Source: Candidatus Woesebacteria bacterium (GTDB taxonomy: Bacteria; Patescibacteriota; Microgenomatia; UBA8517). From it: 64,000 nucleotides of DNA. Shown piece by piece: positions 239 to 17,047 of the stretch. Location of the stretch: contig OY970314.1 in NCBI GenBank assembly GCA_963716475.1, forward strand, positions 854,508 through 918,507, read 5' to 3'. Every line of letters begins with the position of its first letter. The first letter of the stretch is position 1. The notes below the pieces were generated by a model. That model made no database searches and was not told the origin of the DNA. It saw only the letters and a program-made list of their open reading frames with translations. Position numbers and translations under genes: made by a program.

Positions 239-1930
239 CTATTCGGCTTCGCCTGGTTTATTCACATGAGTTGTCTTCCTTTCGCTACCAGGCACGGCCC
301 CTTGCATCTTTTGTTCATAACCTCTCAATCCCTTATAAATAGCACCTCTTATTCTGCCGGTTTCCCAACCTGTTCCCCTCATTCTATTAGCAAGGTAGCC
401 TGCCCCTGCGCCTCCAGCGATACCCGAAGCTATACCAGTAGCCCCTCCGGCGATACCCTTAACCGGTCCATAGGCTTCGCCGATTGCAGTGCCAAATGAG
501 AATCTTTCACCCATAACAAGCCCTTTAAGCATATCCGGAACTTTCGGAATTAGGGCTATTATACCAAAACTTATGGCCAAAAAGATAAGGCCTGATATTC
601 CGGAACCTGCGCCAAGTCCACTGGAGCCTATGATGCCCGGCACCCACACGTTAGGAGTATTACCAAATACGCTTGTATAATAACTGCTAATGCTAACACC
701 GGCCTGGACATATGATTGAAAAAGAGTTGCCCAGGCAAACCAAAAAAGCAGGCCGGTTACCGGAAATACGAGGATGTCGGCCATAACTCTTTTAAACCAA
801 GAACCAAAACCCATAGAAGGAACAATCGCCCCTGCCAATATTTGAACAGGGGCTGTAATAATTGATATATAAAGACTAATCAATGTTTTAATTAAAACAT
901 AGGGGACTTTAAAGGTGTACCAGACTACAAGCACTAGAACCCAGACGGTCATGATTACGAAAACCAATGCTAAAACTGCCCCAAAAATGTTAAATCCTGA
1001 AAGTAAGATTGTGGCGAAATTCGAAACGGCAGCGAAAAAAAACAAAATTGCATACCCCAGCATTTCAAAAAATACCCAAAAACCTCCCATCCAAGCATAA
1101 CCCGGCCCCGTGCCGGAGATTGTTTGGTAAGCGGCACCAATGGAAGCCCATTTGGTGAGGTTTAGCAAAAGCGCAAAGAAACCCGATATAACATACATCA
1201 GGTCAACCGCAAAACCCGCAATGGCATAGGAGAAAGTAATAAGTATCATAGCCATGATCACTTTCGGGAGAGCGGACTGAACAGAAACTACTGTTTGTGG
1301 GGAAAGTTTAACCCTGAACATAATCATGAAAGCAAAAACGATTATCACCAAAACGAGAAGAACATAAGAAATATCCCTAAAGCCCTTCCAATATGTTTGT
1401 ACCCAACTAAGACCACCGTATCCAAAGCCCTGGGCCTTTACTGTAGAAACCAAAGAGAACTTATTTAGGAGATTCTTGGTATATCCCATTCCTGATAAAT
1501 CTCTGTTATCGGTGTTAAATATAGCAGCTACGACCGATTGGTTGTTATTGCCGGGGACCGAAACGAGTTTGGGAAGAACATCAACGGCCTTACCCATAAA
1601 GGTTGTAATTGCACCGGTACAACTAGTTATATCCGCCGTGCTCGTACCAAATAGTTTTATAAAACACGTGATGGAGTTCTCGCCAACAAGGCTCTCAACC
1701 GCCCTCACGGGCAAAAAGAGGAAACTGTAAACTACCCACTGGACCTGGGCGGCAGTGTAGCGTTCGCCGAAGATTTCATCCGCCGGGGAAGTGTTTTGAT
1801 CATAAACTTTTAAATACCATTCAAAAGGATCTTGACTGTACCAGGTCTGTGCCTTGACTGGGGTTAAATAGGGAGTAAAGGAAAAAAATACAGTTAATCC
1901 AAGTAAAAATGAAATGAGCAGTTTTTTCAT
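239..1930 (-). CDS. Polytopic membrane protein with signal peptide, possibly VirB6/TrbL-like
   Basis: 563 aa. N-terminal signal peptide (MKKLLISFLLGLTVFFSF...VKAQ), an extracytoplasmic segment, at least 8 predicted TM helices and a Gly-rich C-terminal tail (GIAGGATGIASGIAGGAGAGY). The architecture resembles the VirB6/TrbL family. It is the last gene of the minus-strand pilin-like operon. Confidence 0.35.
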   Translation of the reverse strand: MKKLLISFLLGLTVFFSFTPYLTPVKAQTWYSQDPFEWYLKVYDQNTSPADEIFGERYTAAQVQWVVYSFLFLPVRAVESLVGENSITCFIKLFGTSTADITSCTGAITTFMGKAVDVLPKLVSVPGNNNQSVVAAIFNTDNRDLSGMGYTKNLLNKFSLVSTVKAQGFGYGGLSWVQTYWKGFRDISYVLLVLVIIVFAFMIMFRVKLSPQTVVSVQSALPKVIMAMILITFSYAIAGFAVDLMYVISGFFALLLNLTKWASIGAAYQTISGTGPGYAWMGGFWVFFEMLGYAILFFFAAVSNFATILLSGFNIFGAVLALVFVIMTVWVLVLVVWYTFKVPYVLIKTLISLYISIITAPVQILAGAIVPSMGFGSWFKRVMADILVFPVTGLLFWFAWATLFQSYVQAGVSISSYYTSVFGNTPNVWVPGIIGSSGLGAGSGISGLIFLAISFGIIALIPKVPDMLKGLVMGERFSFGTAIGEAYGPVKGIAGGATGIASGIAGGAGAGYLANRMRGTGWETGRIRGAIYKGLRGYEQKMQGAVPGSERKTTHVNKPGEAE

Positions 1931-1965: not shown

Positions 1966-4935
1966 CTAGTAACTATGAGCGACATTCCAAACACAAGCAT
2001 TATGACTTGTATTTCCGGAACCCCCAACCTTTTCGCAGAAATCTCCCCCGGGGCAACCGGAATATCCACCCGACGCACAACTTCCATGCGTGGTGTTGCA
2101 CGTCCAAGTGCTATTGTATGCGGTCCCATATTCCCAGACCCTGATTGCCGTCTCATAGTCGCTGCTGTCCCACGAGCAACTATTCGAGGCACCGGATGCA
2201 GCGTTTAGCGAAATTCCGTAACACGTCTTTCCGAGGAAATACGGTGAGCCGTTTTGATTTTGATTTAGAGTTTTAGCCAAAGCAAATATAGAATCCATTA
2301 AATTGCAGGGATCCGGTTGCCTGGTTGGATCCACCACCTTAACGGCATCCTTCACTGCATTCCAATAAACTTGAAAGTATGGAAGGACTCCTAAAATCGG
2401 ATCGGAATTCGGATCACAGTTTGGCATTGGAGAACAGCTCCAGGTTTGTACATTGGCCTCTGTCCAGTCGTACTTACCGGGGATATTAAATGCCCCTTCC
2501 CCAAACATTACTCCTAAAATTAGTCCCGGGGGAACGTTGTAACTTTGTGAAGCTGCCTCGACAATACTTACCAGAGTTGGTAGATTTGCTAGATTGGCAG
2601 AGCCTACTGTTCCGAGGTTGGATAATTTACAAGATCCGCTTGCTGCCGGGAGGGCGGGTAACTTACCTCCGATACAGGATATCGCCCCCGTGCTATTGGA
2701 TAGAGGGCCAAAAGAAATGGGGTCGCCATAACCCTTCGGTCTCAGAAGAGTCTGGATTCCTTTTAAGAAATATTCCGAAATTCCTCCTACGTGGGGGAGG
2801 TTTATATTGGGTGATGAGGACTGTGCGCCGGTAATGGTAACACTTGTTGAACCAGGCATGTCCTTAAGTGTTCCTATCTGGGTCCCGAGTTTTGGAAATA
2901 ATCGTTTGACAATTGCGGTAGGTCCCGCAACCAGCCTTGACCAGACATCTGTAAGTTTTGGACTGTTTGATGAGGTATAAAGATTAATATCGAAAGTACT
3001 GCTGCAGGTTTGTACAGGCGGAGGCGGTGGAATAGGGCTTGGTAGATTACAGCAGTACCAGGCTCCGGGACAGACCCCTGTACCCGTTGTTCCTCCATCA
3101 TTCCTGCATTCGACTTGATTTGGGACGCATGTTCCTGAACAGGAAACTGGTAAACCGGCGCAGCAGTAGCGAGTTCCGGGACATGTTCCCGTACCTCCTA
3201 TTCCTCCGTCACCCCTACATTCGACTAGATTGGGGACGCACGTTCCTGAACAAGTATACGTTGGAGGAGGCTCTGTACAATTAATACCGCATTGGTAACC
3301 GGTAGCACAACTCGTCTGACCGAATGATGTTGTACATACGTCTGAATTTGGATAACACGATCCGCCGAGACGTGAGCAGGGTGGATTGAACGTACAGGAA
3401 AAATTTGCCGTATATGAGAGGTTCCCCGAGAGTGGACTGGCAAAAAGATTATCTCCCCTGTTGGATCTTACCTCGAGAGTGTTGCAGGAAGAGGATGGTG
3501 CAACTGCAGTGTCCGGCCCGGTTTTTGGCTGACCTTTGCTTAAATAAGTGTCCTGGAGGGTTGATCCCAGTTCACTATTCTCCTGAGTGTGGGAGAAGAA
3601 TAGTGTGGACGGGGTTTGATTGGAAAACAGTACATTTGTGAGCGCGGCTCCGGAAACAGAATCGATCTTAATATTTCCCTGCAGGTCTTCCGTCGAAGAA
3701 AGGGGGATGTAGGGAAAAAGAGCCGAGTAAAAGTTTGGTTTTAGGGCATTATCTAGGCATAGAATTACCCCCTTGCCGCCAATGACAGGTATAAAATCAG
3801 GGGCTTTTACTTCGACACAACTATTGCCTCTCCAGTTCTGAAGGGCATGATAGTAGCTTACATAGTCCGGATAATCGGATCTTACCGGTGGCAGGTGGCC
3901 TGCCCACTGGTCTAAACGGATCTTCTGAATAAGGGGTGATAGTGAACCTTCGTAACAAGGTGCAGGAAATCCGCCTATTTCGATATTCCAAAACAAAACC
4001 GGAATGTTTATCCCATAAATGCAGGCTGCAATCTGGTTGTGGCGAATACCTGCCCCATTCAAAGAAGCAATAGCGTCCTTGACTGTTTGCGCCCTTTGTT
4101 GCTGCTGGACTTCCTGGGGAAGCAGTTTATTGATAGGCCCCGAATAGTTAATAAGTTTGTCCCGGTCAAGTACACTTACTTTTTCAGCAAGCGGGTTTAT
4201 GGTAACGCAGCAGACCTGTGCGCCAAGACATGAACTGGTTCCATCAGCCTTAACAAGAGGGTCGGGAACAGGTATTAGGGTATGGGAAAGACACATTCCT
4301 GGAACTATCTTTGATAAGTCTGAACACACCCCGGCCACACCACTATTCCCGATGCAATCGTCGCTTACAGTCAAAGGTGAATCCTCCGCTCGGTTGACAG
4401 TACCGTTAAGGTACCAGCTGACATACCCGTTAACCAAATCGGCATCGCTTAGTGGCGTGGTATAACCTGTCGGAGTTGTATAACCTGTCGGAGTTGTATA
4501 GCCCGTAGGGGTTACATTACACGACGGATCCGGAGGTTGAGAATTAGGGACACATTCCGTATTTCCCATAAAAGGAAGATTTGCGCCGTAAAGGTTTATG
4601 GTTATTAAATGTGGGGCTACATAGTCGGCATATGTACAGACATCTTTATTGCCGGTGATTACACATCTTGAGTCATTTGGATTATAAGTTTCGGAAACGG
4701 TTTCTTGTATGGTAAGGGTGTTTCCGCAAAACGTTGCGTATTCGTTCGTCGTAGCTTGACAGGTTGCGCTGGCCTGATAAGGTCTCAGAGAATGAAATTC
4801 CGGATTTCTGACTTGGTTACAGGGAACGGGCGGGTTGGGGACTTGGGCATTTACCGTGCTTATTTTCAATGAAATACAAATAAAAAAAAATCCAATTAAA
4901 AAAAACTTGAATTTCTTGAAAATTGGCAGTTTCAT
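1966..4935 (-). CDS. Large secreted Cys-rich repeat protein (989 aa), function unknown
   Basis: Signal peptide MKLPIFKKFKFFLIGFFFICISLKISTVNAQ. An in-frame 18-bp x3 tandem repeat encodes TPTGYTTPTGYTTPTGY (about 4449-4502). A ~105-bp tandem duplication gives two modules CSGTCVPNxVECRxDGGxxGTGxCPGxxYCC (about 3050-3290). There is also a poly-Pro stretch and a Cys-rich C-terminal domain. Confidence 0.6.
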   Translation of the reverse strand: MKLPIFKKFKFFLIGFFFICISLKISTVNAQVPNPPVPCNQVRNPEFHSLRPYQASATCQATTNEYATFCGNTLTIQETVSETYNPNDSRCVITGNKDVCTYADYVAPHLITINLYGANLPFMGNTECVPNSQPPDPSCNVTPTGYTTPTGYTTPTGYTTPLSDADLVNGYVSWYLNGTVNRAEDSPLTVSDDCIGNSGVAGVCSDLSKIVPGMCLSHTLIPVPDPLVKADGTSSCLGAQVCCVTINPLAEKVSVLDRDKLINYSGPINKLLPQEVQQQQRAQTVKDAIASLNGAGIRHNQIAACIYGINIPVLFWNIEIGGFPAPCYEGSLSPLIQKIRLDQWAGHLPPVRSDYPDYVSYYHALQNWRGNSCVEVKAPDFIPVIGGKGVILCLDNALKPNFYSALFPYIPLSSTEDLQGNIKIDSVSGAALTNVLFSNQTPSTLFFSHTQENSELGSTLQDTYLSKGQPKTGPDTAVAPSSSCNTLEVRSNRGDNLFASPLSGNLSYTANFSCTFNPPCSRLGGSCYPNSDVCTTSFGQTSCATGYQCGINCTEPPPTYTCSGTCVPNLVECRGDGGIGGTGTCPGTRYCCAGLPVSCSGTCVPNQVECRNDGGTTGTGVCPGAWYCCNLPSPIPPPPPVQTCSSTFDINLYTSSNSPKLTDVWSRLVAGPTAIVKRLFPKLGTQIGTLKDMPGSTSVTITGAQSSSPNINLPHVGGISEYFLKGIQTLLRPKGYGDPISFGPLSNSTGAISCIGGKLPALPAASGSCKLSNLGTVGSANLANLPTLVSIVEAASQSYNVPPGLILGVMFGEGAFNIPGKYDWTEANVQTWSCSPMPNCDPNSDPILGVLPYFQVYWNAVKDAVKVVDPTRQPDPCNLMDSIFALAKTLNQNQNGSPYFLGKTCYGISLNAASGASNSCSWDSSDYETAIRVWEYGTAYNSTWTCNTTHGSCASGGYSGCPGGDFCEKVGGSGNTSHNACVWNVAHSY

Positions 4936-4977: not shown

Positions 4978-5328
4978 TCAGGGGAGCAAGATATTGAAAC
5001 CGGTTACGTCCACCCCGGTGATTTTGTAGATAAGGACTAAAACCAGATAGGAAATGAGTATTATTACCAAACCGGTGATTGCGGAGGTTAAGGTTCTTTT
5101 GGCCCCCTCAACAGCTTTAGGGTCACCCCCCGAGGTTATAAACTTAAACCCGCCGATAATTAGAAGGATAAAAAGTACAATTCCTGCAAACCCTAAAGCA
5201 TAACCTACAATTTTTTGAAAAAGACAACCGAAATTGGCAACGGTAGCAATTCCGCTTGGGTTAACATTACACATGTGTTTGAGACTCCACCATAAAGCAA
5301 TTCTAAACCACGCAAAAAAAATCAGCAA
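4978..5328 (-). CDS. Small two-TM-helix membrane protein, VirB2/TrbC pilin-like paralog 8
   Basis: Loop motif GFKFITSGGDPKAVEGAKRTLTSAITGLVIILISYLV between two hydrophobic helices. The true start may be an internal Met (MCNVNP...). Confidence 0.5.
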   Translation of the reverse strand: MLIFFAWFRIALWWSLKHMCNVNPSGIATVANFGCLFQKIVGYALGFAGIVLFILLIIGGFKFITSGGDPKAVEGAKRTLTSAITGLVIILISYLVLVLIYKITGVDVTGFNILLP

Positions 5329-5362: not shown

Positions 5363-5710
5363 TTATATTGCCAGATTGAGATGAAGTATGTCAACGTGGA
5401 AGAAGGCGTTAATAAGAGCAACAATGGCCCAAGCGGCAAAGACTATGACAAGCCCAACAAGAGCAGCCGTAATCTGGTTTCTTGCACCCTCCGTTTGTGC
5501 TTTATCTCCACCCGAGGCGATCCAGCGGATCCCGCCTACAACGAGCATAAAGAAGAAAATAATAGCGGCGATTATTACCAGAAACCTTACGATGATAGTA
5601 ATAATGCCAGGAAAATCAAGTGTGCCAAGATTAGCAAATTGACCAGTTGGCTGAAGATTGACCTGTGTATTGCCTATTTGTGCGATTAAGTTTTTCATCT
5701 GCATAGTCAT
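5363..5710 (-). CDS. Small two-TM-helix membrane protein, VirB2/TrbC pilin-like paralog 7
   Basis: Motif GIRWIASGGDKAQTEGARNQITAALVGLVIVFAAWAIVALI. Same family as its neighbours. Confidence 0.5.
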   Translation of the reverse strand: MTMQMKNLIAQIGNTQVNLQPTGQFANLGTLDFPGIITIIVRFLVIIAAIIFFFMLVVGGIRWIASGGDKAQTEGARNQITAALVGLVIVFAAWAIVALINAFFHVDILHLNLAI

Positions 5711-5832: not shown

Positions 5833-6156
5833 TCAGCCAAGGGTGGGCAAGGTAAGTTTTAACAGATTTACATTAAAGAACACGCCGACCAACTGAATTA
5901 TTGCGAACACCGCCAAAAGAATTACAAGTCCTATCAAAGCGCTTGTAATGGTTCCTCTAGCATCTTCAAGCTTCTGTTTATCTCCGCTTGAGGCAATCCA
6001 TTTTATGGCGCCGATTAAAAGCATGAAGAAAAAGATAATCACACCGATTATAAAACCCCATTGGATAGCGTAGGGTATAAACTTTTGCACCAAAGCCAAC
6101 CCGGCACTGCCGGATGATCCGCCGGCGGGGGAAGGTAATATTGGATTTGTTATCAT
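5833..6156 (-). CDS. Small two-TM-helix membrane protein, VirB2/TrbC pilin-like paralog 6
   Basis: Motif AIKWIASSGDKQKLEDARGTITSALIGLVILLAVFAII. The N-terminus is Gly/Ser-rich. Confidence 0.5.
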   Translation of the reverse strand: MITNPILPSPAGGSSGSAGLALVQKFIPYAIQWGFIIGVIIFFFMLLIGAIKWIASSGDKQKLEDARGTITSALIGLVILLAVFAIIQLVGVFFNVNLLKLTLPTLG

Positions 6157-6167: not shown

Positions 6168-6548
6168 CTACAGGTTAGCTATTATATTGAAAAGGTTTTG
6201 AATATTCAAAATACCGGTTAGGCCCAGCAAGGAGCCGACAAACTCGATTATTACAAGGGCGACAAGAACCACGACCAAGCCTATTATCCCCATAGTGATT
6301 CTTCTCCTGGCGCTCTCCAGGGCTTGCTTATCGCCCCCGGAGCTTATGATACTTATGGCGCCCGTAATAATACTAAATATTGCCCAGATAATGGCGACAA
6401 TTGTCGTTACCCCAATTACTGCAGAAATGAACTTGGAAAAAACAGTGACAGCTCCCCCGGACCCGATAGGATTATCCAAGGGTCCGTTACCGGGGCCTTT
6501 AAGCCCACCACCCGGATATAGAGGGATGTCTGCCAATAGATTTGTCAT
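6168..6548 (-). CDS. Small two-TM-helix membrane protein, VirB2/TrbC pilin-like paralog 5
   Basis: Motif SIISSGGDKQALESARRRITMGIIGLVVVLVALVII with a Gly/Pro-rich N-terminal region. The start is trimmed to the internal Met (MTNLLADIPLYPGGG) so the overlap with the upstream gene becomes ATGA-type. The ORF track gives 6168..6680. Confidence 0.45.
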   Translation of the reverse strand: MTNLLADIPLYPGGGLKGPGNGPLDNPIGSGGAVTVFSKFISAVIGVTTIVAIIWAIFSIITGAISIISSGGDKQALESARRRITMGIIGLVVVLVALVIIEFVGSLLGLTGILNIQNLFNIIANL

Positions 6549-6898
6549 GGAAAGGTTGGAATTGTTGGTTTCAGGATAAATGTCGGATCTTTGAATATTA
6601 GCTCGCCGAATATTGCGGCTAAAACAAAGGCTCCGGCTGCAAATGCCAGTCCCAGGGCTGTTTGCCAAATTTTTGCCCAAGCCCCGGCGACCTTTTTGGG
6701 ATCGTCTCCGGCAGACATAAAAGCGTATCCGGCCAAAATAAAATTAAACAAGGCATAGACTCCGGCACCAACAATTAAAATCCAAATAACGGATTGTATC
6801 AATTTCCCTATTGCGGCACCCGGGGTTGGTGCATACGTTGCAAGCGAACCCGGCAAGGTTACATTGCCAAAGGGGTTTTGTGCTAAATAATGAATCAT
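6545..6898 (-). CDS. Small two-TM-helix membrane protein, VirB2/TrbC pilin-like paralog 4
   Basis: Motif FMSAGDDPKKVAGAWAKIWQTALGLAFAAGAFVLAAI. This is the most divergent copy. Confidence 0.45.
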   Translation of the reverse strand: MIHYLAQNPFGNVTLPGSLATYAPTPGAAIGKLIQSVIWILIVGAGVYALFNFILAGYAFMSAGDDPKKVAGAWAKIWQTALGLAFAAGAFVLAAIFGELIFKDPTFILKPTIPTFP

Positions 6899-6899: not shown

Positions 6900-7199
6900 T
6901 TAAAAAATATTCGGTATTCCTAAAAGGGAACTTATTAATTTTACTATCCAATATGATGTGAATACAATAACAAAGCCGATTACGGCTGAAGTTATGGTTT
7001 TTTTTGCCTGTTCCGCTTTTTGGGGATCGTTTTGCCCGGCCGATCCTATCATTCCAATCCCTCCCATGATGAAAAAGAAAAGTAGAATCAATCCGGAAAG
7101 AATGAAGGCGACGTTTAGAAAAATGGTGACGAGCCTACTTACGCTATTAATACTTTGGAAACTTGATGTTCCGCCGAAAAGGGTATAACCGATATTCAC
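6900..7199 (-). CDS. Small two-TM-helix membrane protein, VirB2/TrbC pilin-like paralog 3
   Basis: Motif GMIGSAGQNDPQKAEQAKKTITSAVIGFVIVFTSYWIV. Confidence 0.5.
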   Translation of the reverse strand: MNIGYTLFGGTSSFQSINSVSRLVTIFLNVAFILSGLILLFFFIMGGIGMIGSAGQNDPQKAEQAKKTITSAVIGFVIVFTSYWIVKLISSLLGIPNIF

Positions 7200-7246: not shown

Positions 7247-7603
7247 TTATGGAGGAGTCCCGAATACCTTTCCGAAAAGCGTATTCTGAAGGTTAAAGAG
7301 CTGACCGAATATCTGGACTATAAAAAAGGCAAAGATAATAATTACAAAACCAATCAGGGCATTGGTGATTTTGGCTTGTGCAGACTGCATAGCCTTGGGG
7401 TCACCCCTCGACAACATCATCTGCAACCCTCCTATCACCAAGTAAACTAAGAGAGCAATCCCAGCGGCACCAAAAATATAAGGAAGAAGAATTGATATTA
7501 ATTTTCCAATGTTTGGTATTGTAAATTGGAGAGGTATTCCGGCCAGGTTTTGGACCGCGTCAAAGTTTAGTGCTAATTGCATAGTATTATTAACCAAAGC
7601 CAA
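7247..7603 (-). CDS. Small two-TM-helix membrane protein, VirB2/TrbC pilin-like paralog 2
   Basis: Motif LQMMLSRGDPKAMQSAQAKITNALIGFVIIIFAFFIVQIF. Confidence 0.5.
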   Translation of the reverse strand: MALVNNTMQLALNFDAVQNLAGIPLQFTIPNIGKLISILLPYIFGAAGIALLVYLVIGGLQMMLSRGDPKAMQSAQAKITNALIGFVIIIFAFFIVQIFGQLFNLQNTLFGKVFGTPP

Positions 7604-8285
7604 ATACGTTTAATCCCAGTATATCAATTCCCAGAAATTTAAGTATAAAAACAGAGAAAATTAAAAGAATCAGGCCGGAAATTGCGGATGTTAAAAGTTC
7701 CTGACCGGCCTTGAGCCTCTCGGGATTCCCCGCAGCGGTCATAATCATGAATCCGGCGTATAGCATTAAGAGAAATGCAATACCTCCGCCTATGCCCACA
7801 GCCCATCGTAAAATATTTCCCAAAAAGACCTCAGGACTACTAAAGTCGATACAGCCGATGGCGGTATTAATACTATTTGCGCTACTGCAATTAAGGTTTG
7901 TTGTGTTGGGAGTTGGAGCTGGAGTTGTGTTGGGAGTTGGAGCTGGAGTTGTTTGCGGAACTGTATGACAGGTGATAGGAGGGCTGTCTCCAACGTGCCC
8001 CCAACAATATGGGGCACTAGAGCAGCATTGGATTGCTACGCATGACACACCATTTCCAGCACACGTGGCAGAGGGTTGTTGGCACTGGCACGTTGCCAGA
8101 CTGCCTGGCCCACCTACCGTTATTTGAACGACAACGCAGGGGAGGGTGCAGCCATAATTAGGATAACCAGTAAGTTCCATGCAACCCATCACGCTTGAAG
8201 GGCAGGCTGCTAGTGCAAAAACTTTCTGGGGTAATAAAAAAGAAATCAGTAGAAGTAATATGGAGAAAACAAATATTCTTTTCAT
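7590..8285 (-). CDS. Secreted Cys-rich domain + Pro/Thr linker fused to a VirB2/TrbC pilin-like C-terminal module (first gene of the operon)
   Basis: Signal peptide MKRIFVFSILLLLISFLLPQKVFALA. The ORF track starts 27 nt upstream at 8312. A Cys-rich ~100-aa domain is followed by TPAPTPNTTPAPTPNTT, encoded by a 24-bp tandem repeat at about 7900-7960. The C-terminus is AGFMIMTAAGNPERLKAGQELLTSAISGLILLIFSVFILKFL. Confidence 0.5.
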   Translation of the reverse strand: MKRIFVFSILLLLISFLLPQKVFALAACPSSVMGCMELTGYPNYGCTLPCVVVQITVGGPGSLATCQCQQPSATCAGNGVSCVAIQCCSSAPYCWGHVGDSPPITCHTVPQTTPAPTPNTTPAPTPNTTNLNCSSANSINTAIGCIDFSSPEVFLGNILRWAVGIGGGIAFLLMLYAGFMIMTAAGNPERLKAGQELLTSAISGLILLIFSVFILKFLGIDILGLNVFGFG

Positions 8286-8346
8286 TAAATATATTCTAGA
8301 GCAATTGGACAAAAACTAAAAGTATGGGCTGGTATATCGCACTCGT

Positions 8347-8366
8347 GCGATATTTCAACGTTCAAT
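8347..8366. promoter_or_regulatory. Palindromic operator-like site ATATCGCAC-TC-GTGCGATAT in a divergent promoter region
   Basis: Perfect 9-bp inverted repeat between the pilin-like operon (minus strand) and the SpoIID-like gene (plus strand). An extended -10 TGgTATAAT lies at about 8399-8409 on the plus strand. Near-identical half-sites recur at about 10230 and 10269. Confidence 0.45.
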
Positions 8367-8410
8367 TCAGGTCGGTCAAGCCCGTCATTTTTGAATGTTG
8401 GTATAATGGA

Positions 8411-10153
8411 ATGCCTATGCTATACAAATTTTCAATTTTCAGTTTTCAATTTTTCAATAAGTTTAAATTTTTATTGTTTGGAATTCTGATATTGTTTGGG
8501 ATTTGTTTTTTGAAGTATGGTTCCTTAACGAAAGCTCAGGAGTGCCCTGCAACCGATTATCAGTGCCAAATTGACGCTATTCAAAGAAGTATCGACGCCC
8601 TTTCCCCCGCCCAGCAAAAAAACAAGGAAGACCTGGCAGCTCTTAATAAGCAGCTTGCCGATTTAAATTCCAGAATTACAAAATTGACCTCGCAACTTAA
8701 AGTTCTTGAGAATCAAATAGTAGGAAGGGAAGAAGACTTGGCTTTTACAAAGGAAATTTTTGATGAGAAAGCTAAAGAACACTATACATTTTTGAGACTT
8801 TATGACCCGATTACCCCCTTTCTTTTTTCGGATACCGCGTCACAAGCCTTTCAGGAAATAACTCTCAGACAAAGAGCGGCTGATCAGGACAGAAAGACAA
8901 TGGAACAATACGCTGCCGATTTGTCAACGCTAAATTCTGACAAAGAAACCTTAACAAAAAATAAGACCAGTCTTTCCTCACTTCAGTCGCAGGTCGCCGA
9001 GAAGCAAAAGTTTTTGGCAGGTGAGGTTGCAAAAGTGGATACGTACCTCTCCAGTTTGTCATCTAAACAGCAGGAACTTCAGGCGTTGAAGGAGGGTGGT
9101 TTTTCGACGACCGTCGGAGACGTTCCGGCATCGGCTGAGCCTTGTTCCGGCAAACCCGGATCGTCAAATTTCTGTGATCCGGGATTTAGACCCGCATTTG
9201 CCGCTTTTTCCTACGGGGCGCCACATAGAAAAGGCATGAGTCAGTACGGTGCTTACGGGAGAGCCAAGTCGGGTCAGTCTGCTGAGGATATACTCCACGC
9301 CTACTATGGAGGGATAGAGATTAAGAAGGACTATGCGACCAATATAAATATCAAGGTCCAGGGTTATGGGACTGTTGATATCGAGACGTATGTAAAGCGT
9401 ATTTATGAGATGCCGGCAAGTTGGACTGACCACGATTCGGCTGCGCTTAAGGCTCAGGCGGTTGCCGCCAGAAGCTACGCCCTGGCCTACACGAATAATG
9501 GTGCGAATTCTATTTGTGCAACAGAAGCTTGTCAGGTATATAAACCGGTAAATAAAGGCGGTGCTTGGGATGCGGCGGTAGATGCCACGAAGGGATGGGT
9601 TTTGGTTTCGGGAGGAGCACCTTTTTCGGCATGGTATGCTTCCACAGCAGGGGGTTATACATTTAGCTATTCAGCTCAGGGCTACACTACTCCTAACTTT
9701 TGGGATACTCCGGGGGGACAGGGCGGTTGGCCCAATAGCGCCTACGAGATTGCCGGCGGTTCTCCGTGGTTTTATAAAGGCTGGTTTAAGAGTAGGTCCG
9801 GGGCTTCCTGTGGAAGATCAAACCCGTGGCTAACCTCAACCGAGATGGCGGACATTTTGAATGCCAGATATGTCCTTGATGGAAACGGAGACGTGAGTCG
9901 CATCTCGCCTGTGGGAGACTGCTGGGGGGGCAATCCCTATTCGGTATCTGATTTGCAGGGAATTGGCGGATATAGTTCGGTTTCGGGTGTATCTGTCGTA
10001 TATGGAAATGACGGGTCTACTTCAAGCGTTACTTTTTCGACAAATAAGGGTACTGTAAATCTTACCGGTTCTAAATTTAAGGAAGCCTTCAATCTTAGGG
10101 CTCCCGGATACATCGGACTGAAAAGTTCGTTATTCAATATAGAGAAGCTCTGA
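8411..10153 (+). CDS. SpoIID/LytB-domain protein (putative lytic transglycosylase) with N-terminal signal peptide and coiled-coil region
   Basis: C-terminal domain with FSYGAPHRKGMSQYGAYG and MPASWTDHDSAALKAQAVAARSYAL, matching SpoIID/LytB signature blocks. The N-terminal ~200 aa are heptad/coiled-coil-like (QLADLNSRITKLTSQLKVLENQ...). The start is trimmed to MPMLYKF after the promoter. The ORF track starts at 8324. Confidence 0.6.
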   Translation: MPMLYKFSIFSFQFFNKFKFLLFGILILFGICFLKYGSLTKAQECPATDYQCQIDAIQRSIDALSPAQQKNKEDLAALNKQLADLNSRITKLTSQLKVLENQIVGREEDLAFTKEIFDEKAKEHYTFLRLYDPITPFLFSDTASQAFQEITLRQRAADQDRKTMEQYAADLSTLNSDKETLTKNKTSLSSLQSQVAEKQKFLAGEVAKVDTYLSSLSSKQQELQALKEGGFSTTVGDVPASAEPCSGKPGSSNFCDPGFRPAFAAFSYGAPHRKGMSQYGAYGRAKSGQSAEDILHAYYGGIEIKKDYATNINIKVQGYGTVDIETYVKRIYEMPASWTDHDSAALKAQAVAARSYALAYTNNGANSICATEACQVYKPVNKGGAWDAAVDATKGWVLVSGGAPFSAWYASTAGGYTFSYSAQGYTTPNFWDTPGGQGGWPNSAYEIAGGSPWFYKGWFKSRSGASCGRSNPWLTSTEMADILNARYVLDGNGDVSRISPVGDCWGGNPYSVSDLQGIGGYSSVSGVSVVYGNDGSTSSVTFSTNKGTVNLTGSKFKEAFNLRAPGYIGLKSSLFNIEKL

Positions 10154-10202: not shown

Positions 10203-10295
10203 TGTTATAACAAAAACAGGATTTTTGATATATCGCACGGGTGCGTTATAACAAAAAGGATTTTTGATATATCGCACGGGTGCGTTATAATCATC
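10203..10295 (+). repeat. Tandem ~40-bp direct repeat (2.3 copies), each carrying a -35/-10-like promoter and an operator half-palindrome
   Basis: The unit GTTATAACAAAAA(C)AGGATTTTTGATATATCGCACGGGTGC occurs twice, followed by GTTATAATCATCC. Each unit reads as TTGATA-N16-TATAAC, and the last copy reads TATAAT. Each unit embeds ATATCGCAC-GG-GTGCGTTAT. Confidence 0.6.
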
Positions 10296-11105: not shown

Positions 11106-13001
11106 ATGTTAGAAATAATTAGTGCAAAAGTGACGGCCGCTCCGGGAGCCTCTGGGTGGGCACAGGTCCATGAGTTTACTTCGGATGACCCCGAACGTAG
11201 GCGCGTAAGAGGAAAACTTATCGCCGTTATTGCTACCAATAAAGCGGAAGAAGGGATTGATACAATCACATCCGGCAGGGAGATAATTAGCCGACTTCAC
11301 GAGGAGTACTTCGGCCCAAATGAGGGGAATCCTTTTGATTTATTGAGAGATGCTACCCAAAAAGTGGCGGATGAATTTGGAGAAGGCAAGGGAGAAGTAG
11401 AAATTGCGGCCTGCGCATTTGTTGAGGGAGTAATCTATTCGACAGCTTCGGGCGGAGCTCGGGTAATGATCTCCCGTGATAGCGCACTCGCTACCATCTT
11501 GGTAAGTGAAGATCGCGTTATTACAGCCTCGGGTTATCCAAAAGAAGGAGATCTTATGCTTCTTGCAACCAAAGCTTTTTTCCAAATGGTTTCCGCCGGT
11601 GTAGTAAAAACTGCTCTTGCAACGGGAAGTCCGGAGGCAGCAGCGGAAACATTTAATCCAATAATTCACGGAGCGGCAGGAAGCGGAAATGTCGGCGCGG
11701 TGGTTATGAAATTTAATAAAGAAAATGAAGCATTCAATTCTCGGGAAGCTGTTCAGTCCGAAGATCAAAAAGAAAAATTACCGGCTTCTCCCAAAGACAA
11801 GCCGGTAAATATTATCAGGCAAAGAGCAAGGGCCTTGTTTAGTAAATTTAGAAGTAAAATCCCGGAAAGAAGCATATATATAAAGTCCGGTATGGGAGAT
11901 GAGGTTACATCGCAGAGCAAAAAAATGACTTTTTCCGCCGGGGTGATCCTCCTTGTGATTCTTGTTATAAGTATTGGATTTGGCATAAGGCAGAAAAGCA
12001 TTAATGATTTAAAGAAGAAATATCAGGGAATTCTTCAAATTGCCCAAAGTGATGTCGATCAGGCAATCGCACTTGCCAGTGTAAGTCCGGACAAGTCCAG
12101 AGAACTGTTTATTGACAGCGAACAAAAGTTGAAACAGATTCAGGATCTTAAGGTTACGGACACTAAAGTTAATGATTTGCAAAAAAAGATTGAAGAGAGC
12201 AAAGGGGCAATACTCGGGGAGTACGACGGCACACCAACCCTCTTTCTTGATTTAAGTCTGCTTTCATCCGGATTTACGGGGGATGCTATTTCGGCTTCCG
12301 GAGGGAATATCTACATTCTTGATAAATCGGGGAAAAGAGTTGTAAGTGTTGGGGTAGATACCAAAAAAAGTAAGGTTGTAGCGGGACCTTCTGTAATTGA
12401 CAATGCGGCAGACCTTGCTGCCTATCAGGATACGGCTTATATTCTGGCTACAGACGGAATTTACCAAGTGGGTTTAGCTAAAACCAAGGTGATAGATAAA
12501 ACTTGGGCCGGGGACGCCCTGATTTCCGCTTTTGCCGGGAATATGTATGTTCTTGATAAAACTGGGAACCAGGTTTACAGATATTCGGGCCAAACCGGGG
12601 GTACATTTGGCCCGCAACAAAAATGGCTTTCGGCGTCAACTACGGCGAATTTCTCCGGTGCGGTCGCCTGGGGATTGGATGGAGCAGTTTATGTTTTATA
12701 CCCAAATTCCAGAGTACTTAAATATAGCCTTGGCTCCCCCCAGAACTTTTCAATTTCCGGGGTGCTACCCGAAATCGGCAATATTGATGCAATTTACGCC
12801 GATCCGGATAATCAAGACATTTATCTTTTGGACAAAGCCGGGAAACGCGTTGTCGCCATAGATAAAAAAGGGAATTACAAAGCCCAATATACAGACGATC
12901 AAATAGCCGCTGCTAAAAGTCTGGTGGTTTCAGAAGCACAAAAAGAAATAATACTTCTTACCGGAGACAAACTCCTCTCGATCGAGATCCGACACCTTTG
13001 A
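11106..13001 (+). CDS. Single-pass membrane protein with a cytoplasmic N-domain (possibly degenerate PP2C-like) and C-terminal beta-propeller-like repeats
   Basis: 631 aa with a TM at about residues 265-290 (FSAGVILLVILVISIGFGI). The C-terminus repeats GNIYILDKSGKRVVSV / NMYVLDKTGNQVYRY / DIYLLDKAGKRVVAID. The N-domain assignment is weak. Confidence 0.3.
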   Translation: MLEIISAKVTAAPGASGWAQVHEFTSDDPERRRVRGKLIAVIATNKAEEGIDTITSGREIISRLHEEYFGPNEGNPFDLLRDATQKVADEFGEGKGEVEIAACAFVEGVIYSTASGGARVMISRDSALATILVSEDRVITASGYPKEGDLMLLATKAFFQMVSAGVVKTALATGSPEAAAETFNPIIHGAAGSGNVGAVVMKFNKENEAFNSREAVQSEDQKEKLPASPKDKPVNIIRQRARALFSKFRSKIPERSIYIKSGMGDEVTSQSKKMTFSAGVILLVILVISIGFGIRQKSINDLKKKYQGILQIAQSDVDQAIALASVSPDKSRELFIDSEQKLKQIQDLKVTDTKVNDLQKKIEESKGAILGEYDGTPTLFLDLSLLSSGFTGDAISASGGNIYILDKSGKRVVSVGVDTKKSKVVAGPSVIDNAADLAAYQDTAYILATDGIYQVGLAKTKVIDKTWAGDALISAFAGNMYVLDKTGNQVYRYSGQTGGTFGPQQKWLSASTTANFSGAVAWGLDGAVYVLYPNSRVLKYSLGSPQNFSISGVLPEIGNIDAIYADPDNQDIYLLDKAGKRVVAIDKKGNYKAQYTDDQIAAAKSLVVSEAQKEIILLTGDKLLSIEIRHL

Positions 13002-13018: not shown

Positions 13019-13453
13019 ATGAAAATCTTTAACAAGAAAGCCAGATTTGAATACGAGCTATCGGGGGAAGGAGTTGAGGCCGGTGTCTCCCTTTTGGGAG
13101 CTGAGGCTAAGTCCGTACGTGAGGGAAGAGCAGACATTTCCCAGGCTGCAGTCAGAGTATTAGGTAATGAGGCTTATTTAATCAATGCCAATATCCCCGC
13201 CTTAGGTATCCAAAAATACAATTCGACTAGGATGAGAAAGCTCCTAATGCATAGGGGGGAAATTCTTTCACTGGTAACAAAAATGAAGCAAAAAAAGTTG
13301 CAAATCGTGCCTGTTCGGGTGTACAATAAGGGTCGCTTAATTAAACTCTATCTTGAGCTTGGAAAGGCCAAGCGTAAGTTTGAAAAGAAAGAGGCTCTTA
13401 AGCGCCACGACATAAACCGAGACATAGAAAAGGCAATGAAAGGTTCGATTTAA
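13019..13453 (+). CDS. smpB: SsrA-binding protein SmpB
   Basis: 144 aa with ARFEYELSGEGVEAGVSLLGAEAKSVREGRADISQAAV...RMRKLLMHRGEI...KGRLIKLYLELGKAKRKFEKKE, the canonical SmpB signature. tmRNA lies immediately downstream. Confidence 0.9.
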   Translation: MKIFNKKARFEYELSGEGVEAGVSLLGAEAKSVREGRADISQAAVRVLGNEAYLINANIPALGIQKYNSTRMRKLLMHRGEILSLVTKMKQKKLQIVPVRVYNKGRLIKLYLELGKAKRKFEKKEALKRHDINRDIEKAMKGSI

Positions 13454-13456
13454 GTC

Positions 13457-13822
13457 GGGGACGATCGGTTTCGACGGAAAGCTCTTTACAATACTGCAGG
13501 CAGACTTTGATCCTACGTCTTAATATTAGGGTTAAAAAATAAAAGCTAGGAATTTATTCCAAGCTCAACCTAGGTACGCGCAAGCGTTTGCCTAAGTTGC
13601 ATCCTGAGACCTGATTCTCGATCGGATCAACTGGGTGTAAACCATTCGAGATGCTACCTAGACTTTAATGATTTAAAGGTTTAGGTAAAAGACAAATAAA
13701 TCTTACCTTGAAATTTCTTGTTGGCTAGATAAGTTCAGGGAAAATTCAAAAACCAAATAAGCTTGTAGAAGTGTTGTTTGAAGTATTTTCGGACGCGGGT
13801 TCGATTCCCGCCGTCTCCACCA
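13457..13822 (+). ncRNA. ssrA: tmRNA (ssrA)
   Basis: The 5' end is GGGGACGATCGGTTTCGACGG. The 3' tRNA-like end is GGACGCGGGTTCGATTCCCGCCGTCTCCACCA. The candidate tag frame GCT...GCC TAA at about 13545-13595 would encode ARNLFQAQPRYAQAFA*, or AQPRYAQAFA* from a later resume codon. Confidence 0.85.
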
Positions 13823-13850
13823 AACCCACTAGAAATTAGTGGGTTTTTTG
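13823..13850 (+). terminator. Rho-independent terminator after ssrA
   Basis: AAACCCACTagaaattAGTGGGTTTTTTGG hairpin followed by a T-run. Confidence 0.7.
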
Positions 13851-13865
13851 GTGTCATAATAATTT

Positions 13866-14540
13866 ATGGGATTACTTGATCTTGTTTTCCCTAAAACCTG
13901 TCTTGGCTGCGGGCGTGGTGGTGCTTATATCTGTCCGGATTGTCTTGCCGGGGTAAGACCGGCACAGCCGATTTGTCCATACTGTGAAAGGGCATCAATC
14001 GACGGGGTGACCCATATAAAATGTCAAAAAAAGCTTGGCCTGGATGGCCTTATCTCAATTTGGGAGTATGAGGGAGTAATCAGGAAAGCTATTTTGGCAT
14101 TGAAGTATAAATATGTCACCCTGATCGGACAGGAACTATCCGGCTGTTTTTTATCAGAAATTCAATCCCAAAACACCAGATACTACATCCCAAATACCGG
14201 CGTCATGGTTCCTATTCCTATTTATTGGCATCGTCAGAATGTCAGAGGTTTCAATCAGTCAATTGAGGTGGGAAAATCTGTTGCCGGGGAAATGGGTTGG
14301 GAATTTCTGCCGGATTTACTTATCAAGAAACAGCCGACGGTGTCTCAGGCTGAACTAAAGGGGGACGAAAGACGCCAAAACCTCAAGGGTGTTTTTGCTC
14401 TGGGTTCCAAATTACCGCTACCTGATTCCGTAATTCTTTTTGATGATGTTTTTACAACAGGTTCTACCCTCAGAGAGGCTGCAAAAGTCCTAAAAAGAGT
14501 CGGGGTGGGGAAAGTCTGGGGGCTAACCATCGCAAGGTAG
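13866..14540 (+). CDS. comF: ComF family phosphoribosyltransferase-domain protein
   Basis: N-terminal double CxxC zinc finger (CLGCGRGG..CPDC...CPYC) and C-terminal PRTase motif VILFDDVFTTGSTLREAAKVLKRVG. Confidence 0.75.
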   Translation: MGLLDLVFPKTCLGCGRGGAYICPDCLAGVRPAQPICPYCERASIDGVTHIKCQKKLGLDGLISIWEYEGVIRKAILALKYKYVTLIGQELSGCFLSEIQSQNTRYYIPNTGVMVPIPIYWHRQNVRGFNQSIEVGKSVAGEMGWEFLPDLLIKKQPTVSQAELKGDERRQNLKGVFALGSKLPLPDSVILFDDVFTTGSTLREAAKVLKRVGVGKVWGLTIAR

Positions 14541-14571
14541 CCTGCGGTGGGTACAGGGGTCGAACCCTTTA

Positions 14572-14937
14572 TTAAACCCGATCTAGCACATTTTTTAATT
14601 GATTTTTGTCGAACGGTCTTACAGATCTTCGACCAGCAAAGCAGGTTTTGAACAAAAATTCTTTACCATTTGAACTTAAGACGTACAACCAATCGTATGC
14701 ATTTTCTTTTGATTTATTAACAACATATCCTTTAGAATTTGAATGGACTCTTCTAAGATCAACATCTTTCGTACTGGCGTATCTAACCTGTACTCTTTTA
14801 ATTTCTTTCGAAGTGTCAATTATGAGGTCATACGAAGCAGACTCTGTTAGCGGGATTGATACGTCGAAGCCAAGTTTCGTGAAGGATGCAACAGCCTGGG
14901 ATACAGCAATGTCACCCTTTCTTTGCGTGAGTCTCAT
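14572..14937 (-). CDS. Hypothetical protein, possibly PD-(D/E)XK nuclease-fold
   Basis: 121 aa. YDLIIDTSKEIKRVQVRY resembles a D..(D/E)xK core. No further support. Confidence 0.25.
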   Translation of the reverse strand: MRLTQRKGDIAVSQAVASFTKLGFDVSIPLTESASYDLIIDTSKEIKRVQVRYASTKDVDLRRVHSNSKGYVVNKSKENAYDWLYVLSSNGKEFLFKTCFAGRRSVRPFDKNQLKNVLDRV

Positions 14938-14979
14938 AATTAATTTTACCGGTATGGGTGACCTGCTGTCAATTTTTTG

Positions 14980-15067
14980 CGGTGAGGGTGGGATTCGAAC
15001 CCACGGTAAGGAAGATCCCTACATTAGTTTTCAAGACTAACGCCATCGTCCACTCGGCCACCTCACC
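14980..15067 (-). tRNA. tRNA-Ser (anticodon TGA)
   Basis: Reverse complement GGTGAGGTGGCCGAGTGGACGATGGCGTTAGTCTTGAAAACTAATGTAGGGATCTTCCTTACCGTGGGTTCGAATCCCACCCTCACCG. Long variable arm. Anticodon loop CTTGAAA. Confidence 0.8.
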
Positions 15068-15156
15068 TGGGCGGAGGATGAGGGAGTCGAACCCACCGGC
15101 CACTTACGTGACCAAGGTTTAGCAAACCTTCGCCTTAGCCGCTCGGCATATCCTCC
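15068..15156 (-). tRNA. tRNA-Ser (anticodon GCT), CCA encoded
   Basis: Reverse complement GGAGGATATGCCGAGCGGCTAAGGCGAAGGTTTGCTAAACCTT...GGTGGGTTCGACTCCCTCATCCTCCGCCA. Anticodon loop TTGCTAA. Confidence 0.8.
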
Positions 15157-15182
15157 AAAAGGCAGTGCAATTATAACAGATT

Positions 15183-15761
15183 TTGAGGTATACTATGCGT
15201 GTCATGGATACTGCCAAAGGTCAAAAAACAGAGACAGAAAGCACTTTAAATGATGAACCGCAAGCCGTCGTTGTCAGGCGTGAGCCGGAACGGGATTTAG
15301 TTACCTGGATTGCTCCCGGAAGGCCTTTTAGAAGACGCGACAGGCAGTTTTATGTTACGACCTTTGCCATAGCCGGAATTGTCAGTCTGATTCTTTTTCT
15401 GGCCGAGGGGATAATGCCCGTTATTTTGATTATTTCTCTGGTATTTTTATACTACGTTCTTTCGACCGTTCAGCCGGATAATGTTGAATACAAAATAACC
15501 ACGAAAGGGATTAAAATCGCAGGCAAACTTACGGAGTGGCAATATCTGAACCGCTACTGGTTTTCGAAAAGGTTTGAGAGTGAGCTTATGATCGTTGATA
15601 CGGTTTTGCTTCCCGGCAGGATTGAATTTGTAATAAACCCGGAAGTTAAAGTGGAACTTAAAAAAGAGGTTTCTGCCTACATTCCGTATGAGGAGGTTCC
15701 TCCAGCCGCCCTGGATAAAATTACGAACTGGTTTGCAGCCAAGTTGCCGGGGAATAAATAA
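15183..15761 (+). CDS. Hypothetical membrane protein (2 TM)
   Basis: 192 aa with a central hydrophobic pair (FAIAGIVSLILFLAEGIMPVILIISLVFLYYVL). No recognisable motif. Confidence 0.4.
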   Translation: MRYTMRVMDTAKGQKTETESTLNDEPQAVVVRREPERDLVTWIAPGRPFRRRDRQFYVTTFAIAGIVSLILFLAEGIMPVILIISLVFLYYVLSTVQPDNVEYKITTKGIKIAGKLTEWQYLNRYWFSKRFESELMIVDTVLLPGRIEFVINPEVKVELKKEVSAYIPYEEVPPAALDKITNWFAAKLPGNK

Positions 15762-15833
15762 GCCCTCGTAGCTCAACGGATCGAGCACTGGTTTGCGGAA
15801 CCAATGATATCAGTTCAATTCTGATCGAGGGCA
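15762..15833 (+). tRNA. tRNA-Arg (anticodon read as GCG)
   Basis: GCCCTCGTAGCTCAACGGATCGAGCACTGGTTTGCGGAACCAATGATATCAGTTCAATTCTGATCGAGGGCA. Cloverleaf with loop TTGCGGA. Confidence 0.7.
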
Positions 15834-15863
15834 CTTGCGTAATATCTGGAGGTCTCGCAATTT

Positions 15864-15948
15864 GGAGGGTTCGCATAGCGGCCAATTGCACGAGTTTCGA
15901 AAACTCGAGGGAGTAATCCCTACACAGGTTCAAATCCTGTACCCTCCG
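15864..15948 (+). tRNA. tRNA-Ser (anticodon CGA)
   Basis: GGAGGGTTCGCATAGCGGCCAATTGCACGAGTTTCGAAAACTCGAGGGAGTAATCCCTACACAGGTTCAAATCCTGTACCCTCCG. Long variable arm. Confidence 0.8.
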
Positions 15949-16070
15949 CTCGTCGTAACTAAACATTGCTAACCGTTTCTCAAAACTAAAAGTTTTAGAA
16001 ACTAGCGCAAGTTTGTTACTCCTCTCGAAATTGCGGTGCAATTTCGTTTGGGAGCATAGACACAATAATC

Positions 16071-16523
16071 ATGAACAACAAGAATAATCAGCAAATAACA
16101 GTAGGGGGAGCGATAGTTTTTAGGGATAATCGTGGAAAACGTCAGTTTTTGCTTGTAAAAACAAAGGATGAAGGAGACTGGGAAATCCCCAAGGTTATCG
16201 TAAGAAAAGGCGAGTCATCTGTGCGTTCCGTAATCAGACTAACCGGGGAACAGGGAGGAATGACGGCCAGGGTGCTTGAGGAAGCTGGAAGAGCAACCGG
16301 AACGACTATTCTAAACGGTAAGTCCATTCCCCAGAAGTATTATTACTATATTATGCTTCAAAGAGGAGGGCCGAGCGAGCTTATCGGGTTCGCGGAATTT
16401 AAATGGCTGGAGTACGCGGAAGCGGTGAAAAGGGTAATCCTTAAAAGAGAGAAAGACATGTTTAAATTGGCGCGTGAGGTTTTAAAACAGTGGGAAAAAA
16501 CGCACAAAATCAAACTATATTAA
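16071..16523 (+). CDS. Nudix-fold protein with degenerate Nudix box
   Basis: 150 aa. GESSVRSVIRLTGEQGG only loosely matches Gx5Ex7REUxEExGU. Confidence 0.4.
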   Translation: MNNKNNQQITVGGAIVFRDNRGKRQFLLVKTKDEGDWEIPKVIVRKGESSVRSVIRLTGEQGGMTARVLEEAGRATGTTILNGKSIPQKYYYYIMLQRGGPSELIGFAEFKWLEYAEAVKRVILKREKDMFKLAREVLKQWEKTHKIKLY

Positions 16524-17011
16524 ACCGTGAGTTTTCTTCGGGTGGGGCCGTCTTCAGGGGTGATGAATGGTTGATAACAAGATCGTCTGCAAGCAAACTC
16601 TATCCTAAAGCAATTTGGAGACTTCCGAAAGGTTGGATCGATAATGTTACACCTGAAATTCCCGGACCAATGGCAAGCGGAAAGCTGAGGGCTGATGAAG
16701 AGTCGCTGCAAAAAGGTGCCCTGCGGGAAGTGAGAGAAGAAGGAGGAATTGAAGCTAAGATTGTTAAAAAGATCGGAACAGCGAAGTATTTTTTTAACGC
16801 GCCCGATAAAGGTAGAATCTTAAAGTTTGTTACATTTTATTTAATGGAATATGTAGGTGATTTACCGGAGGGTTATGATGAAGAAACATCCGAGATCGCC
16901 TGGTTGCCATTTGAAGAAGCCTATAAAAAACTTTCTTTCTCGGGTGAAAAGCAAATACTCAAAAAAGCGAAAGAACTTCTGGCCCCCGTAGCTCAACGGA
17001 TAAGCAAATAG
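16490..17011 (+). CDS. Nudix hydrolase
   Basis: Nudix box EESLQKGALREVREEGGI. The last ~9 codons (APVAQRISK*) are encoded by a tRNA-like 5' fragment. Confidence 0.65.
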   Translation: MGKNAQNQTILNREFSSGGAVFRGDEWLITRSSASKLYPKAIWRLPKGWIDNVTPEIPGPMASGKLRADEESLQKGALREVREEGGIEAKIVKKIGTAKYFFNAPDKGRILKFVTFYLMEYVGDLPEGYDEETSEIAWLPFEEAYKKLSFSGEKQILKKAKELLAPVAQRISK

Positions 17012-17047
17012 CTTGTCGGTTGTTCTACAGGTGCTCATTAGAAATTC

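Follow-up and report, generated by a model that had tools for sequence, protein, structure and literature searches.

In a 64-kb stretch of DNA from an ultrasmall bacterium of the Patescibacteria/Microgenomatia (referred to here as the window; all coordinates of the locus are window positions), the gene p1 (7590–8285, minus strand) leads a tandem array of eight genes related to the Pfam family PF18895 (T4SS_pilin; T4SS, type IV secretion system). It encodes, within a single open reading frame (ORF), a Cys-rich head followed by a two-helix pilin core. On balance, we favour the reading that p1 is the position-1 subunit of an eight-gene VirB2-like PF18895 array conserved in Microgenomatia, and that it presents, as a tip or initiator, an interchangeable head which binds a ligand or a host surface. 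Pilin arrays of Patescibacteria are already known; what is new is a lead member with a swappable and putatively disulfide-rich ectodomain. Both the organization of the array in eight orthogroups and the exchange of head cassettes between two protein scaffolds are undescribed in the literature searched.

The longest open frame at p1, as given by ORF calling, extends from 7590 to 8312 on the minus strand and begins with a TTG codon. Since homologues all open with MKK or MKR, the ATG at 8285 was taken as the real start, giving a protein of 231 aa and a stop codon. Five elements follow one another along this strand. The N-terminus carries a Sec-type signal peptide, MKRIFVFSILLLLISFLLPQKVFA, followed by LAA (residues 1–24, 8214–8285), as judged by hydropathy and by a modelled helix at residues 3–17. 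Next come the Cys-rich head (residues 25–110, 7956–8213), which contains 12 Cys and is predicted to form a small beta-rich domain, and a Pro/Thr linker of about 22 aa (residues 111–132, 7890–7955). A conserved C-x11-C beta-hairpin (C133...NTAIGC145; residues 133–147, 7845–7889) directly precedes helix 1 of the pilin core (7593–7844), which consists of helices 151–182 and 188–217 joined by the loop GNPERLKAG and provides the PF18895 match. In the AlphaFold2 (AF2) model of p1 the linker is disordered, with a predicted local distance difference test score (pLDDT) below 50 at residues 116–125, and the core is a helical hairpin. The protein has 14 Cys, at residues 28, 35, 46, 50, 66, 68, 75, 82, 87, 88, 94, 106, 133 and 145. 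The initial annotation, made from the sequence alone, had described a Cys-rich domain of about 100 aa and 15 Cys. Such a domain is indeed present, but it measures 86 aa and holds 12 Cys, and the fifteenth Cys lies within the TTG extension.

The same annotation had placed the Cys-rich region and the pilin module in one gene, and would have given this up had they proved to be separate genes after a frameshift check. The 231-aa ORF is unbroken and the fusion architecture is conserved. A protein search with p1 returned 1451 matches, including dozens of full-length homologues (87–100% coverage, 42–65% identity, 192–270 aa); the few matches with a named source all came from Woesebacteria or Microgenomates. 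The Logan assembly of run ERR12035932 was 100% identical over the whole p1 gene, repeat included, its reads being possibly the same as those of the window genome. The identical sequence also has a public gene call (L171:2425–2658, corresponding to window 7593–7826), with a product of only 77 aa which starts well inside the p1 ORF and is without signal peptide, Cys-rich head and linker. Since at least one automatic gene call shortens p1 in this way, the heads of such fusions may escape protein-level surveys.

The core of p1 matched PF18895 above threshold (35.4 bits for a cut-off of 26.6, E = 1.1e-8, residues 160–227 of the 240-aa ORF). Of the other seven, p4 (13.9 bits) and p5 (24.5 bits) fell short of the threshold, and the remaining five array genes passed it. 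The family motif AAGNPERLKAGQELLTSAISGLIL, noticed initially in the two-helix C-terminal module, is present in the p1 core, where an alignment of 29 sequences shows little or no variation at most of its positions. Two hydrophobic helices separated by a short polar loop, with the pattern G-[DN]-P/K ... A ... IT.A..GL, were observed by hydropathy, in the AF2 model and in the paralogue alignment. The tandem array of divergent paralogues, another trait of PF18895, is found here as eight genes. With NF045849, the NCBIfam model of the Mbov_0395 family (pilin-like conjugal transfer proteins of mycoplasma integrative and conjugative elements, ICEs), p2 reached 36.5 bits (E = 2.8e-9) and p1 16.3 bits, for a cut-off of 40. 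Although membership is thus not reached, this near miss supports, as a hint, a distant kinship with pilin-like conjugation proteins of monoderms. The pilin-core profile matched no pilin among PDB sequences. A type IV pilin or a pseudopilin of the type II secretion system could be excluded: there is no G/[FM]TLxE prepilin motif, the N-terminus is a Sec-type MKRIFVFSILLLLISFLLPQKVFA-LAA, and the hydrophobic helices are C-terminal.

To place p1 in its family, one genome per species was scanned and 80 loci were recovered from Woesebacteria, Gottesmanbacteria, Amesbacteria and Shapirobacteria, with gene order derived from ORF and hidden Markov model (HMM) analysis. Array statistics refer to those 79 loci, most of them from distinct species, in which a SpoIID gene lies upstream. 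The order is nearly universal: a 631-aa protein, a DUF5657 protein, a bPH-domain protein and SpoIID, all four divergent, on one side, then the variable lead pilin with seven short pilins, the large secreted protein and a polytopic membrane protein. The variable pilin is the first of the array in 79/79 loci, the SpoIID gene always adjoining it. Exactly eight pilins were counted in 57 of the 79 arrays, and many of the shorter arrays come from contigs that are themselves short or truncated. At every one of the eight positions, the best match in other genomes occupied the same array position in 57/57 cases, which points to eight ancient orthogroups in a fixed order rather than to recent interchangeable copies. 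It follows that the array probably encodes a defined set of several subunits and not a collection of interchangeable variants. Among the eight pilins, the p1 core is the most conserved, with a mean identity of 69%.

In the window, p1 is followed on the same strand by seven more PF18895-type genes, so that its designation as the first gene of the operon holds for the pilin array. These genes, which are closely packed, are p2 (7247–7582, with its ATG at 7582, 7 nt past the p1 stop), p3 (6900–7199), p4 (6545–6898), p5 (6168–6548), p6 (5833–6156), p7 (5363–5710) and p8 (4978–5274), the last with a C-x14-C pair of its own. The start of p5 shares an ATGA with the p4 stop (6545–6548), which suggests that the two may be translationally coupled. 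A 4-nt overlap also occurs at the corresponding pilin pair of the locus L001 (11767–11770). In a promoter scan, matches were no higher than expected from shuffled sequence, and promoter and terminator scans were thus uninformative.

Several features distinguish the first position from the seven others. A signal-peptide-like start was found in 74/79 lead pilins compared to 65/464 other array pilins, using a heuristic which may misread helix 1 as a signal peptide. The Cys...Cys hairpin ahead of helix 1 is present in nearly all lead pilins examined and constitutes a signature of position 1. Cys are concentrated in this position, 411 of the 464 non-lead pilins having none. Lead pilins carry 2 Cys (22 species), 8 (18 species), 12 (5 species), 14 (8 species) and up to 33, and their number is even in 68 of the 79, as predicted by disulfide-bonded extracellular modules.

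Cys make up 14% of the p1 head (12 in 86 aa), compared to a mean of 0.72% in the other window ORFs, the 989-aa protein of the locus being excluded (binomial P ~2e-12). When modelled alone by AF2, the head gave a confident small beta-rich fold (pLDDT 83, predicted template-modelling score 0.60). Within the head subtype of the window, 10 of its 12 Cys are invariant, and the subtype alignment shows that extra Cys were gained pairwise in three clades, independently and at different sites; for the clade of the window, C75–C88 is the predicted pair. Taken together, the invariant Cys and the paired clade-specific gains amount to the covariation expected of disulfides. From these sequence patterns, we infer that the head is closed by about six disulfides. 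No family or fold match was obtained for the head in Pfam (E up to 10), PDB or BFVD, nor was there any HMM or fold match to known Cys-rich families (knottin/hevein, defensin and others). Ten other head types likewise had no match in Pfam.

The head behaves as an exchangeable cassette. Depending on the species, the N-terminus of the lead pilin is headless or carries modules of 6, 10–12, 14 or up to about 30 Cys, most of these numbers being even. The number of head types is at least about a dozen, a loose estimate since single-linkage BLAST clustering over-linked Cys-rich sequences. Among homologues with the same head type, identity to window p1 is 30–66% in the head and 53–82% in the core. Cores 81–87% identical to that of the window were found with no head, with a 6-Cys module, or with unrelated 12-Cys or 18-Cys modules. 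The initial annotation had overlooked this variation, more informative than that of the linker, in which species differ by exchange, gain or loss of the entire Cys-rich head. As 22 of the 79 species have a headless lead pilin, the head would be dispensable for assembly.

In an exhaustive search of 1.84 billion representatives, the profile of the window head type retrieved only 23 clusters, almost all with the architecture signal peptide, head and pilin; four of the 23 have a second Cys module upstream. A word-indexed search of 5.8 billion proteins with the head profile returned nothing, probably owing to an index limit for Cys-rich words. In two of the 23 clusters, it is the large secreted protein of the locus that bears the head, N-terminally. 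One of these proteins, P0135, aligns through residues 121–558 with residues 39–498 of its 989-aa counterpart in the window (E = 2e-28). Other lead-pilin heads resembled N-termini of large proteins from other genomes (32–57% identity, E down to 6e-20), never from the same genome. Large proteins with head-like modules at their N-terminus (about residues 14–120) were found in L009, L024, L034 and L052, the lead pilins of L024 and L034 being headless. The locus thus has two secreted scaffolds, p1 and the large protein, either of which can carry the cassette.

The initial annotation had also reported a 24-bp tandem repeat in the Pro/Thr linker. Tandem Repeats Finder, run on the window, located it at 7900–7952 (period 24, 2.2 copies, 100% match, score 106). 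It is in frame and codes for TTPAPTPN TTPAPTPN TT. The accompanying proposal that this repeat is a likely site of length variation is weakly supported: orthologue linkers do vary, from 7 to 23 aa, and differ in composition as well, but a clean tandem repeat was seen only in the window gene among 112 unique lead-pilin genes. It thus represents a recent, lineage-specific duplication. No relative close enough for a comparison of copy number was found, the best full-length match reaching 65% identity among database proteins and 51% among metagenome contigs, and the only other assembly, that of ERR12035932, has two copies as in the window. A second perfect in-frame repeat (4460–4500, 18 bp, 2.3 copies) encodes TPTGYT units inside the minus-strand gene of the 989-aa protein. 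Two recent duplications affecting Pro/Thr linkers, in p1 and in the 989-aa protein, therefore lie in one locus.

Downstream of p8, the same strand carries the gene of this large secreted protein (1966–4935), whose 989 aa include 51 Cys and the TPTGYT repeat and gave no Pfam match; its orthologue in L003 has a lysozyme-like SLT_3 domain. The locus ends with the gene of a conserved polytopic membrane protein of 563 aa (239–1930, minus strand). A VirB6-like nature of this protein is a guess. Its profile found nothing relevant among PDB sequences, and its 1139 homologues are without Pfam annotation among those listed. The convergent gene beyond the locus shows no sign of being a VirB4: its product, large and cytoplasmic, has no Pfam match, and no nucleotide-binding motif was noticed in it by eye. 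On the other side of p1, a divergent gene on the plus strand (8324–10153, likely start near 8414) encodes a protein with a coiled coil and a SpoIID/LytB domain, associated with peptidoglycan remodelling. Beyond it lie the genes of a bPH-domain protein, of a 74-aa ORF at the position of DUF5657 in L001 and L003, and of the 631-aa protein.

A few other observations concern this side of the locus and the remainder of the window. A 39-bp tandem repeat (2.2 copies, 95% match) spans 10204–10290; it begins past the SpoIID-like gene, on its downstream side, and overlaps the annotated bPH start (10280). The 631-aa protein (11106–13001), found beside the locus in nearly all genomes, has no Pfam match and a repeat-rich C-terminal half, possibly propeller-like by eye. 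A 144-aa ORF (13019–13453) occupies the position of smpB in L001 and L003, directly upstream of tmRNA (13457–13822); a tRNA cluster with four Ser and two Arg genes comes next, the region as a whole being 13019–17329. Two class A penicillin-binding proteins, with transglycosylase and transpeptidase domains, are encoded in tandem on the minus strand at 52941–57520. The remaining window is ordinary chromosome, with tRNAs, DnaG, sigma-70, glycolysis genes and ribonucleotide reductase.

How p1 might operate can be outlined from its layout. The signal peptide would route the N-terminus through Sec, and the 86-aa head would then fold extracellularly, locked by disulfides, with the Pro/Thr linker serving to tether it flexibly. 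Through its two hydrophobic helices, p1 would be anchored in the membrane and later in a filament or stalk built by the eight pilins, leaving the head exposed on the outer face. A domain that folds behind a cleavable signal peptide and ahead of two membrane helices implies a topology with the N-terminus out, the loop in and the C-terminus out, in line with the earlier suggestion of a pilin anchored to an extracellular domain. In the structures of the F-pilus and T-pilus, both termini lie on the outside and the inter-helix loop on the side of the lumen; an N-terminal fusion would thus decorate the outside of a VirB2-type filament. A surface-displayed binding module is further suggested by several traits in combination: the core is conserved, the head is hypervariable and dispensable and hangs on a flexible tether, cassettes are shared with a wall-associated secreted protein, and genes for peptidoglycan remodelling flank the array. 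The role of minor or tip pilin proposed initially is plausible, as it fits the fixed first position, the unique signal peptide and the unique variable head of p1. Its placement at the tip, or as initiator, is drawn by analogy.

Several results weigh against this reading. PF04956 (TrbC/VirB2) was matched only below threshold, by p7 (E = 0.086) and by P0098 (E = 0.031). Alignment by hhalign with six real VirB2/TrbC sequences gave a probability of 12.8% and an E-value of 0.0022 over 67 columns, with congruent topology. Foldseek retrieved the T-pilus 8exh (TM 0.58, the template-modelling score) and the conjugation pilus 8dfu of A. pernix (TM 0.62), both with E above 2. Membership of p1 in the canonical TrbC/VirB2 family was thus not demonstrated. 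VirB4 and VirD4 were found neither in window ORFs of at least 500 aa nor in the other ORFs scanned. As for the head, it is missing from the lead pilin in the 22 headless species of the 79, and searches by sequence and by fold linked it to no known adhesin. Finally, eight fixed orthogroups could correspond to a stoichiometric membrane complex instead of a filament.

This last possibility, in which the eight two-helix proteins form a complex of fixed stoichiometry serving as channel, stalk or scaffold of the envelope, with the p1 head as its extracytoplasmic lid, sensor or wall-contact element, seems to us rather unlikely. Eight ancient orthogroups in fixed order are unlike the pilin copy variation of other systems (PMC12102498), VirB2 homology is inconclusive, and the failure to find VirB4 or VirD4 in the 64-kb window extends to the syntenic neighbours, among which no T4SS component was recognized within 8 kb in 80 genomes. 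Nevertheless, most paralogues score above the PF18895 threshold, and the TrbC/VirB2 matches, weak as they are, recur and are positionally congruent. The 36.5 bits of p2 with the mycoplasma ICE pilin-like model (cut-off 40), the location of homologous Saccharimonadia arrays within a T4SS cluster, where they are essential, and the peptidoglycan-remodelling genes flanking the array also argue for pilins. An artefact in which two genes or a frameshifted pseudogene are read as one has next to no probability: the 77-aa public call of the identical sequence would be in its favour, but that call begins well inside an unbroken ORF, the sequence is identical in the second assembly (Logan, ERR12035932), and the alignment of dozens of full-length homologues with a common domain order rules it out.

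Two other alternatives concern the function of the head, and we consider both improbable. It could be an effector kept on a tether, for instance a toxin resembling defensins or knottins, or a membrane-active peptide, which the pilin would bear to the host surface and which cleavage of the linker might free. Many lead pilins of other species have 6-Cys modules with a spacing close to C-x6-C-x3-C-x9-C-x6-CC, and the quick turnover of heads would suit an effector arms race as well. The second half of the window head, with its C-C-CC-C-C spacing, would recall a cystine knot. However, no family or fold match linked the head to defensins, knottins or any toxin, neither a protease site nor evidence of processing was found, and the same modules occur on a wall-associated protein of 800–1000 aa. 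With similarly low probability, the head could bind the cell's own wall or surface layer (S-layer) and serve as a structural adaptor which anchors or guides the structure through the envelope. The SpoIID-domain protein flanking the locus, the lysozyme-like SLT_3 domain in the L003 orthologue of the large protein and the occurrence of the head on both p1 and this wall-associated protein are compatible with such a role. A slowly evolving wall of its own would however predict a conserved head, whereas the head varies more than any other part of the locus and is missing in 22/79 species.

The position-1 subunit with an interchangeable head, which we favour, can be compared with several known systems. 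Modular type IV pilins, e.g. those of Streptococcus sanguinis, have a functional module grafted onto a pilin moiety, and p1 is like them in that a pilin scaffold presents a folded binding module. The superfamilies are however unrelated: in type IV pilins, the signal peptide is of class III and there is one helix, at the N-terminus, whereas p1 has a Sec-type signal and an N-terminal module. Like VirB2 of the Agrobacterium T-pilus, TraA of the F pilus and TrbC, p1 contains a small hydrophobic helical hairpin with a cleaved leader; unlike p1, these canonical proteins have no folded extra domain and are single-copy major subunits encoded beside virB4. With VirB5, CagL/CagI and TrwL/TrwJ of the Bartonella Trw system, it shares the idea of a specialized and variable T4SS surface component contacting the host. 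In the VirB5-family systems, adhesion resides in separate proteins and not in a domain on a VirB2-like subunit, and no homology was detected. PrgB offers a last comparison, p1 being a candidate functional equivalent for cell-cell contact in a monoderm T4SS; in contrast to p1, Gram-positive conjugation adhesins of the PrgB type are large, wall-anchored proteins without a pilin part.

The closest relatives are the arrays of Patescibacteria themselves. VirB2-like pilin arrays of 2–11 genes are reported to be abundant in Microgenomatia and Saccharimonadia (PMC10633639, PMC12102498), a field reviewed in PMC12857230, and the pilin array of Southlakia epibionticum, located in a T4SS cluster, is essential (PMC10633639). 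A pilin gene lies near virB4 in only 1135 of 1948 assemblies (PMC12102498), so this proximity is not strictly defining for PF18895 pilins. The arrays have been discussed as possible variation for host range (PMC12102498, PMC10633639), and gene multiplication for host interaction was considered in PMC12102498. The array described here shares with them the Pfam family, tandem divergent two-helix genes, an ultrasmall monoderm bacterium as carrier and a chromosomal location. It differs from those published, in the literature searched, by its N-terminal Cys-rich ectodomain, its special first gene and the exchange of modules, as well as by fixed orthogroups, a variability concentrated in the p1 head and the fact that virB4 was not found in the window. 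Nothing on Cys-rich or fused pilins in this context was found in that literature.

Host recognition and attachment are a central open question in Patescibacteria, whose pilin arrays are essential in the only tractable species and in which no T4SS-associated adhesin has been found (PMC12102498, PMC10633639, PMC12857230), adhesins such as PrgB having gone undetected (PMC12102498). A first pilin with a signal peptide and a rapidly exchanged, putatively disulfide-rich head is a concrete and easily recognized candidate for a recognition element, within a Microgenomatia array made of eight distinct conserved subunits rather than interchangeable copies. We further propose, quite tentatively, that the head of the lead pilin, or the same cassette on the large protein, is the laterally exchanged, receptor-binding determinant of host specificity of Microgenomatia epibionts, with p1 as a naturally modular display pilin and the eight pilins forming an ordered heteromeric filament or stalk in place of a homopolymeric conjugative pilus. 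If this is true, such a host-specificity cassette would supply the adhesin reported missing from the T4SS-like systems of Patescibacteria.

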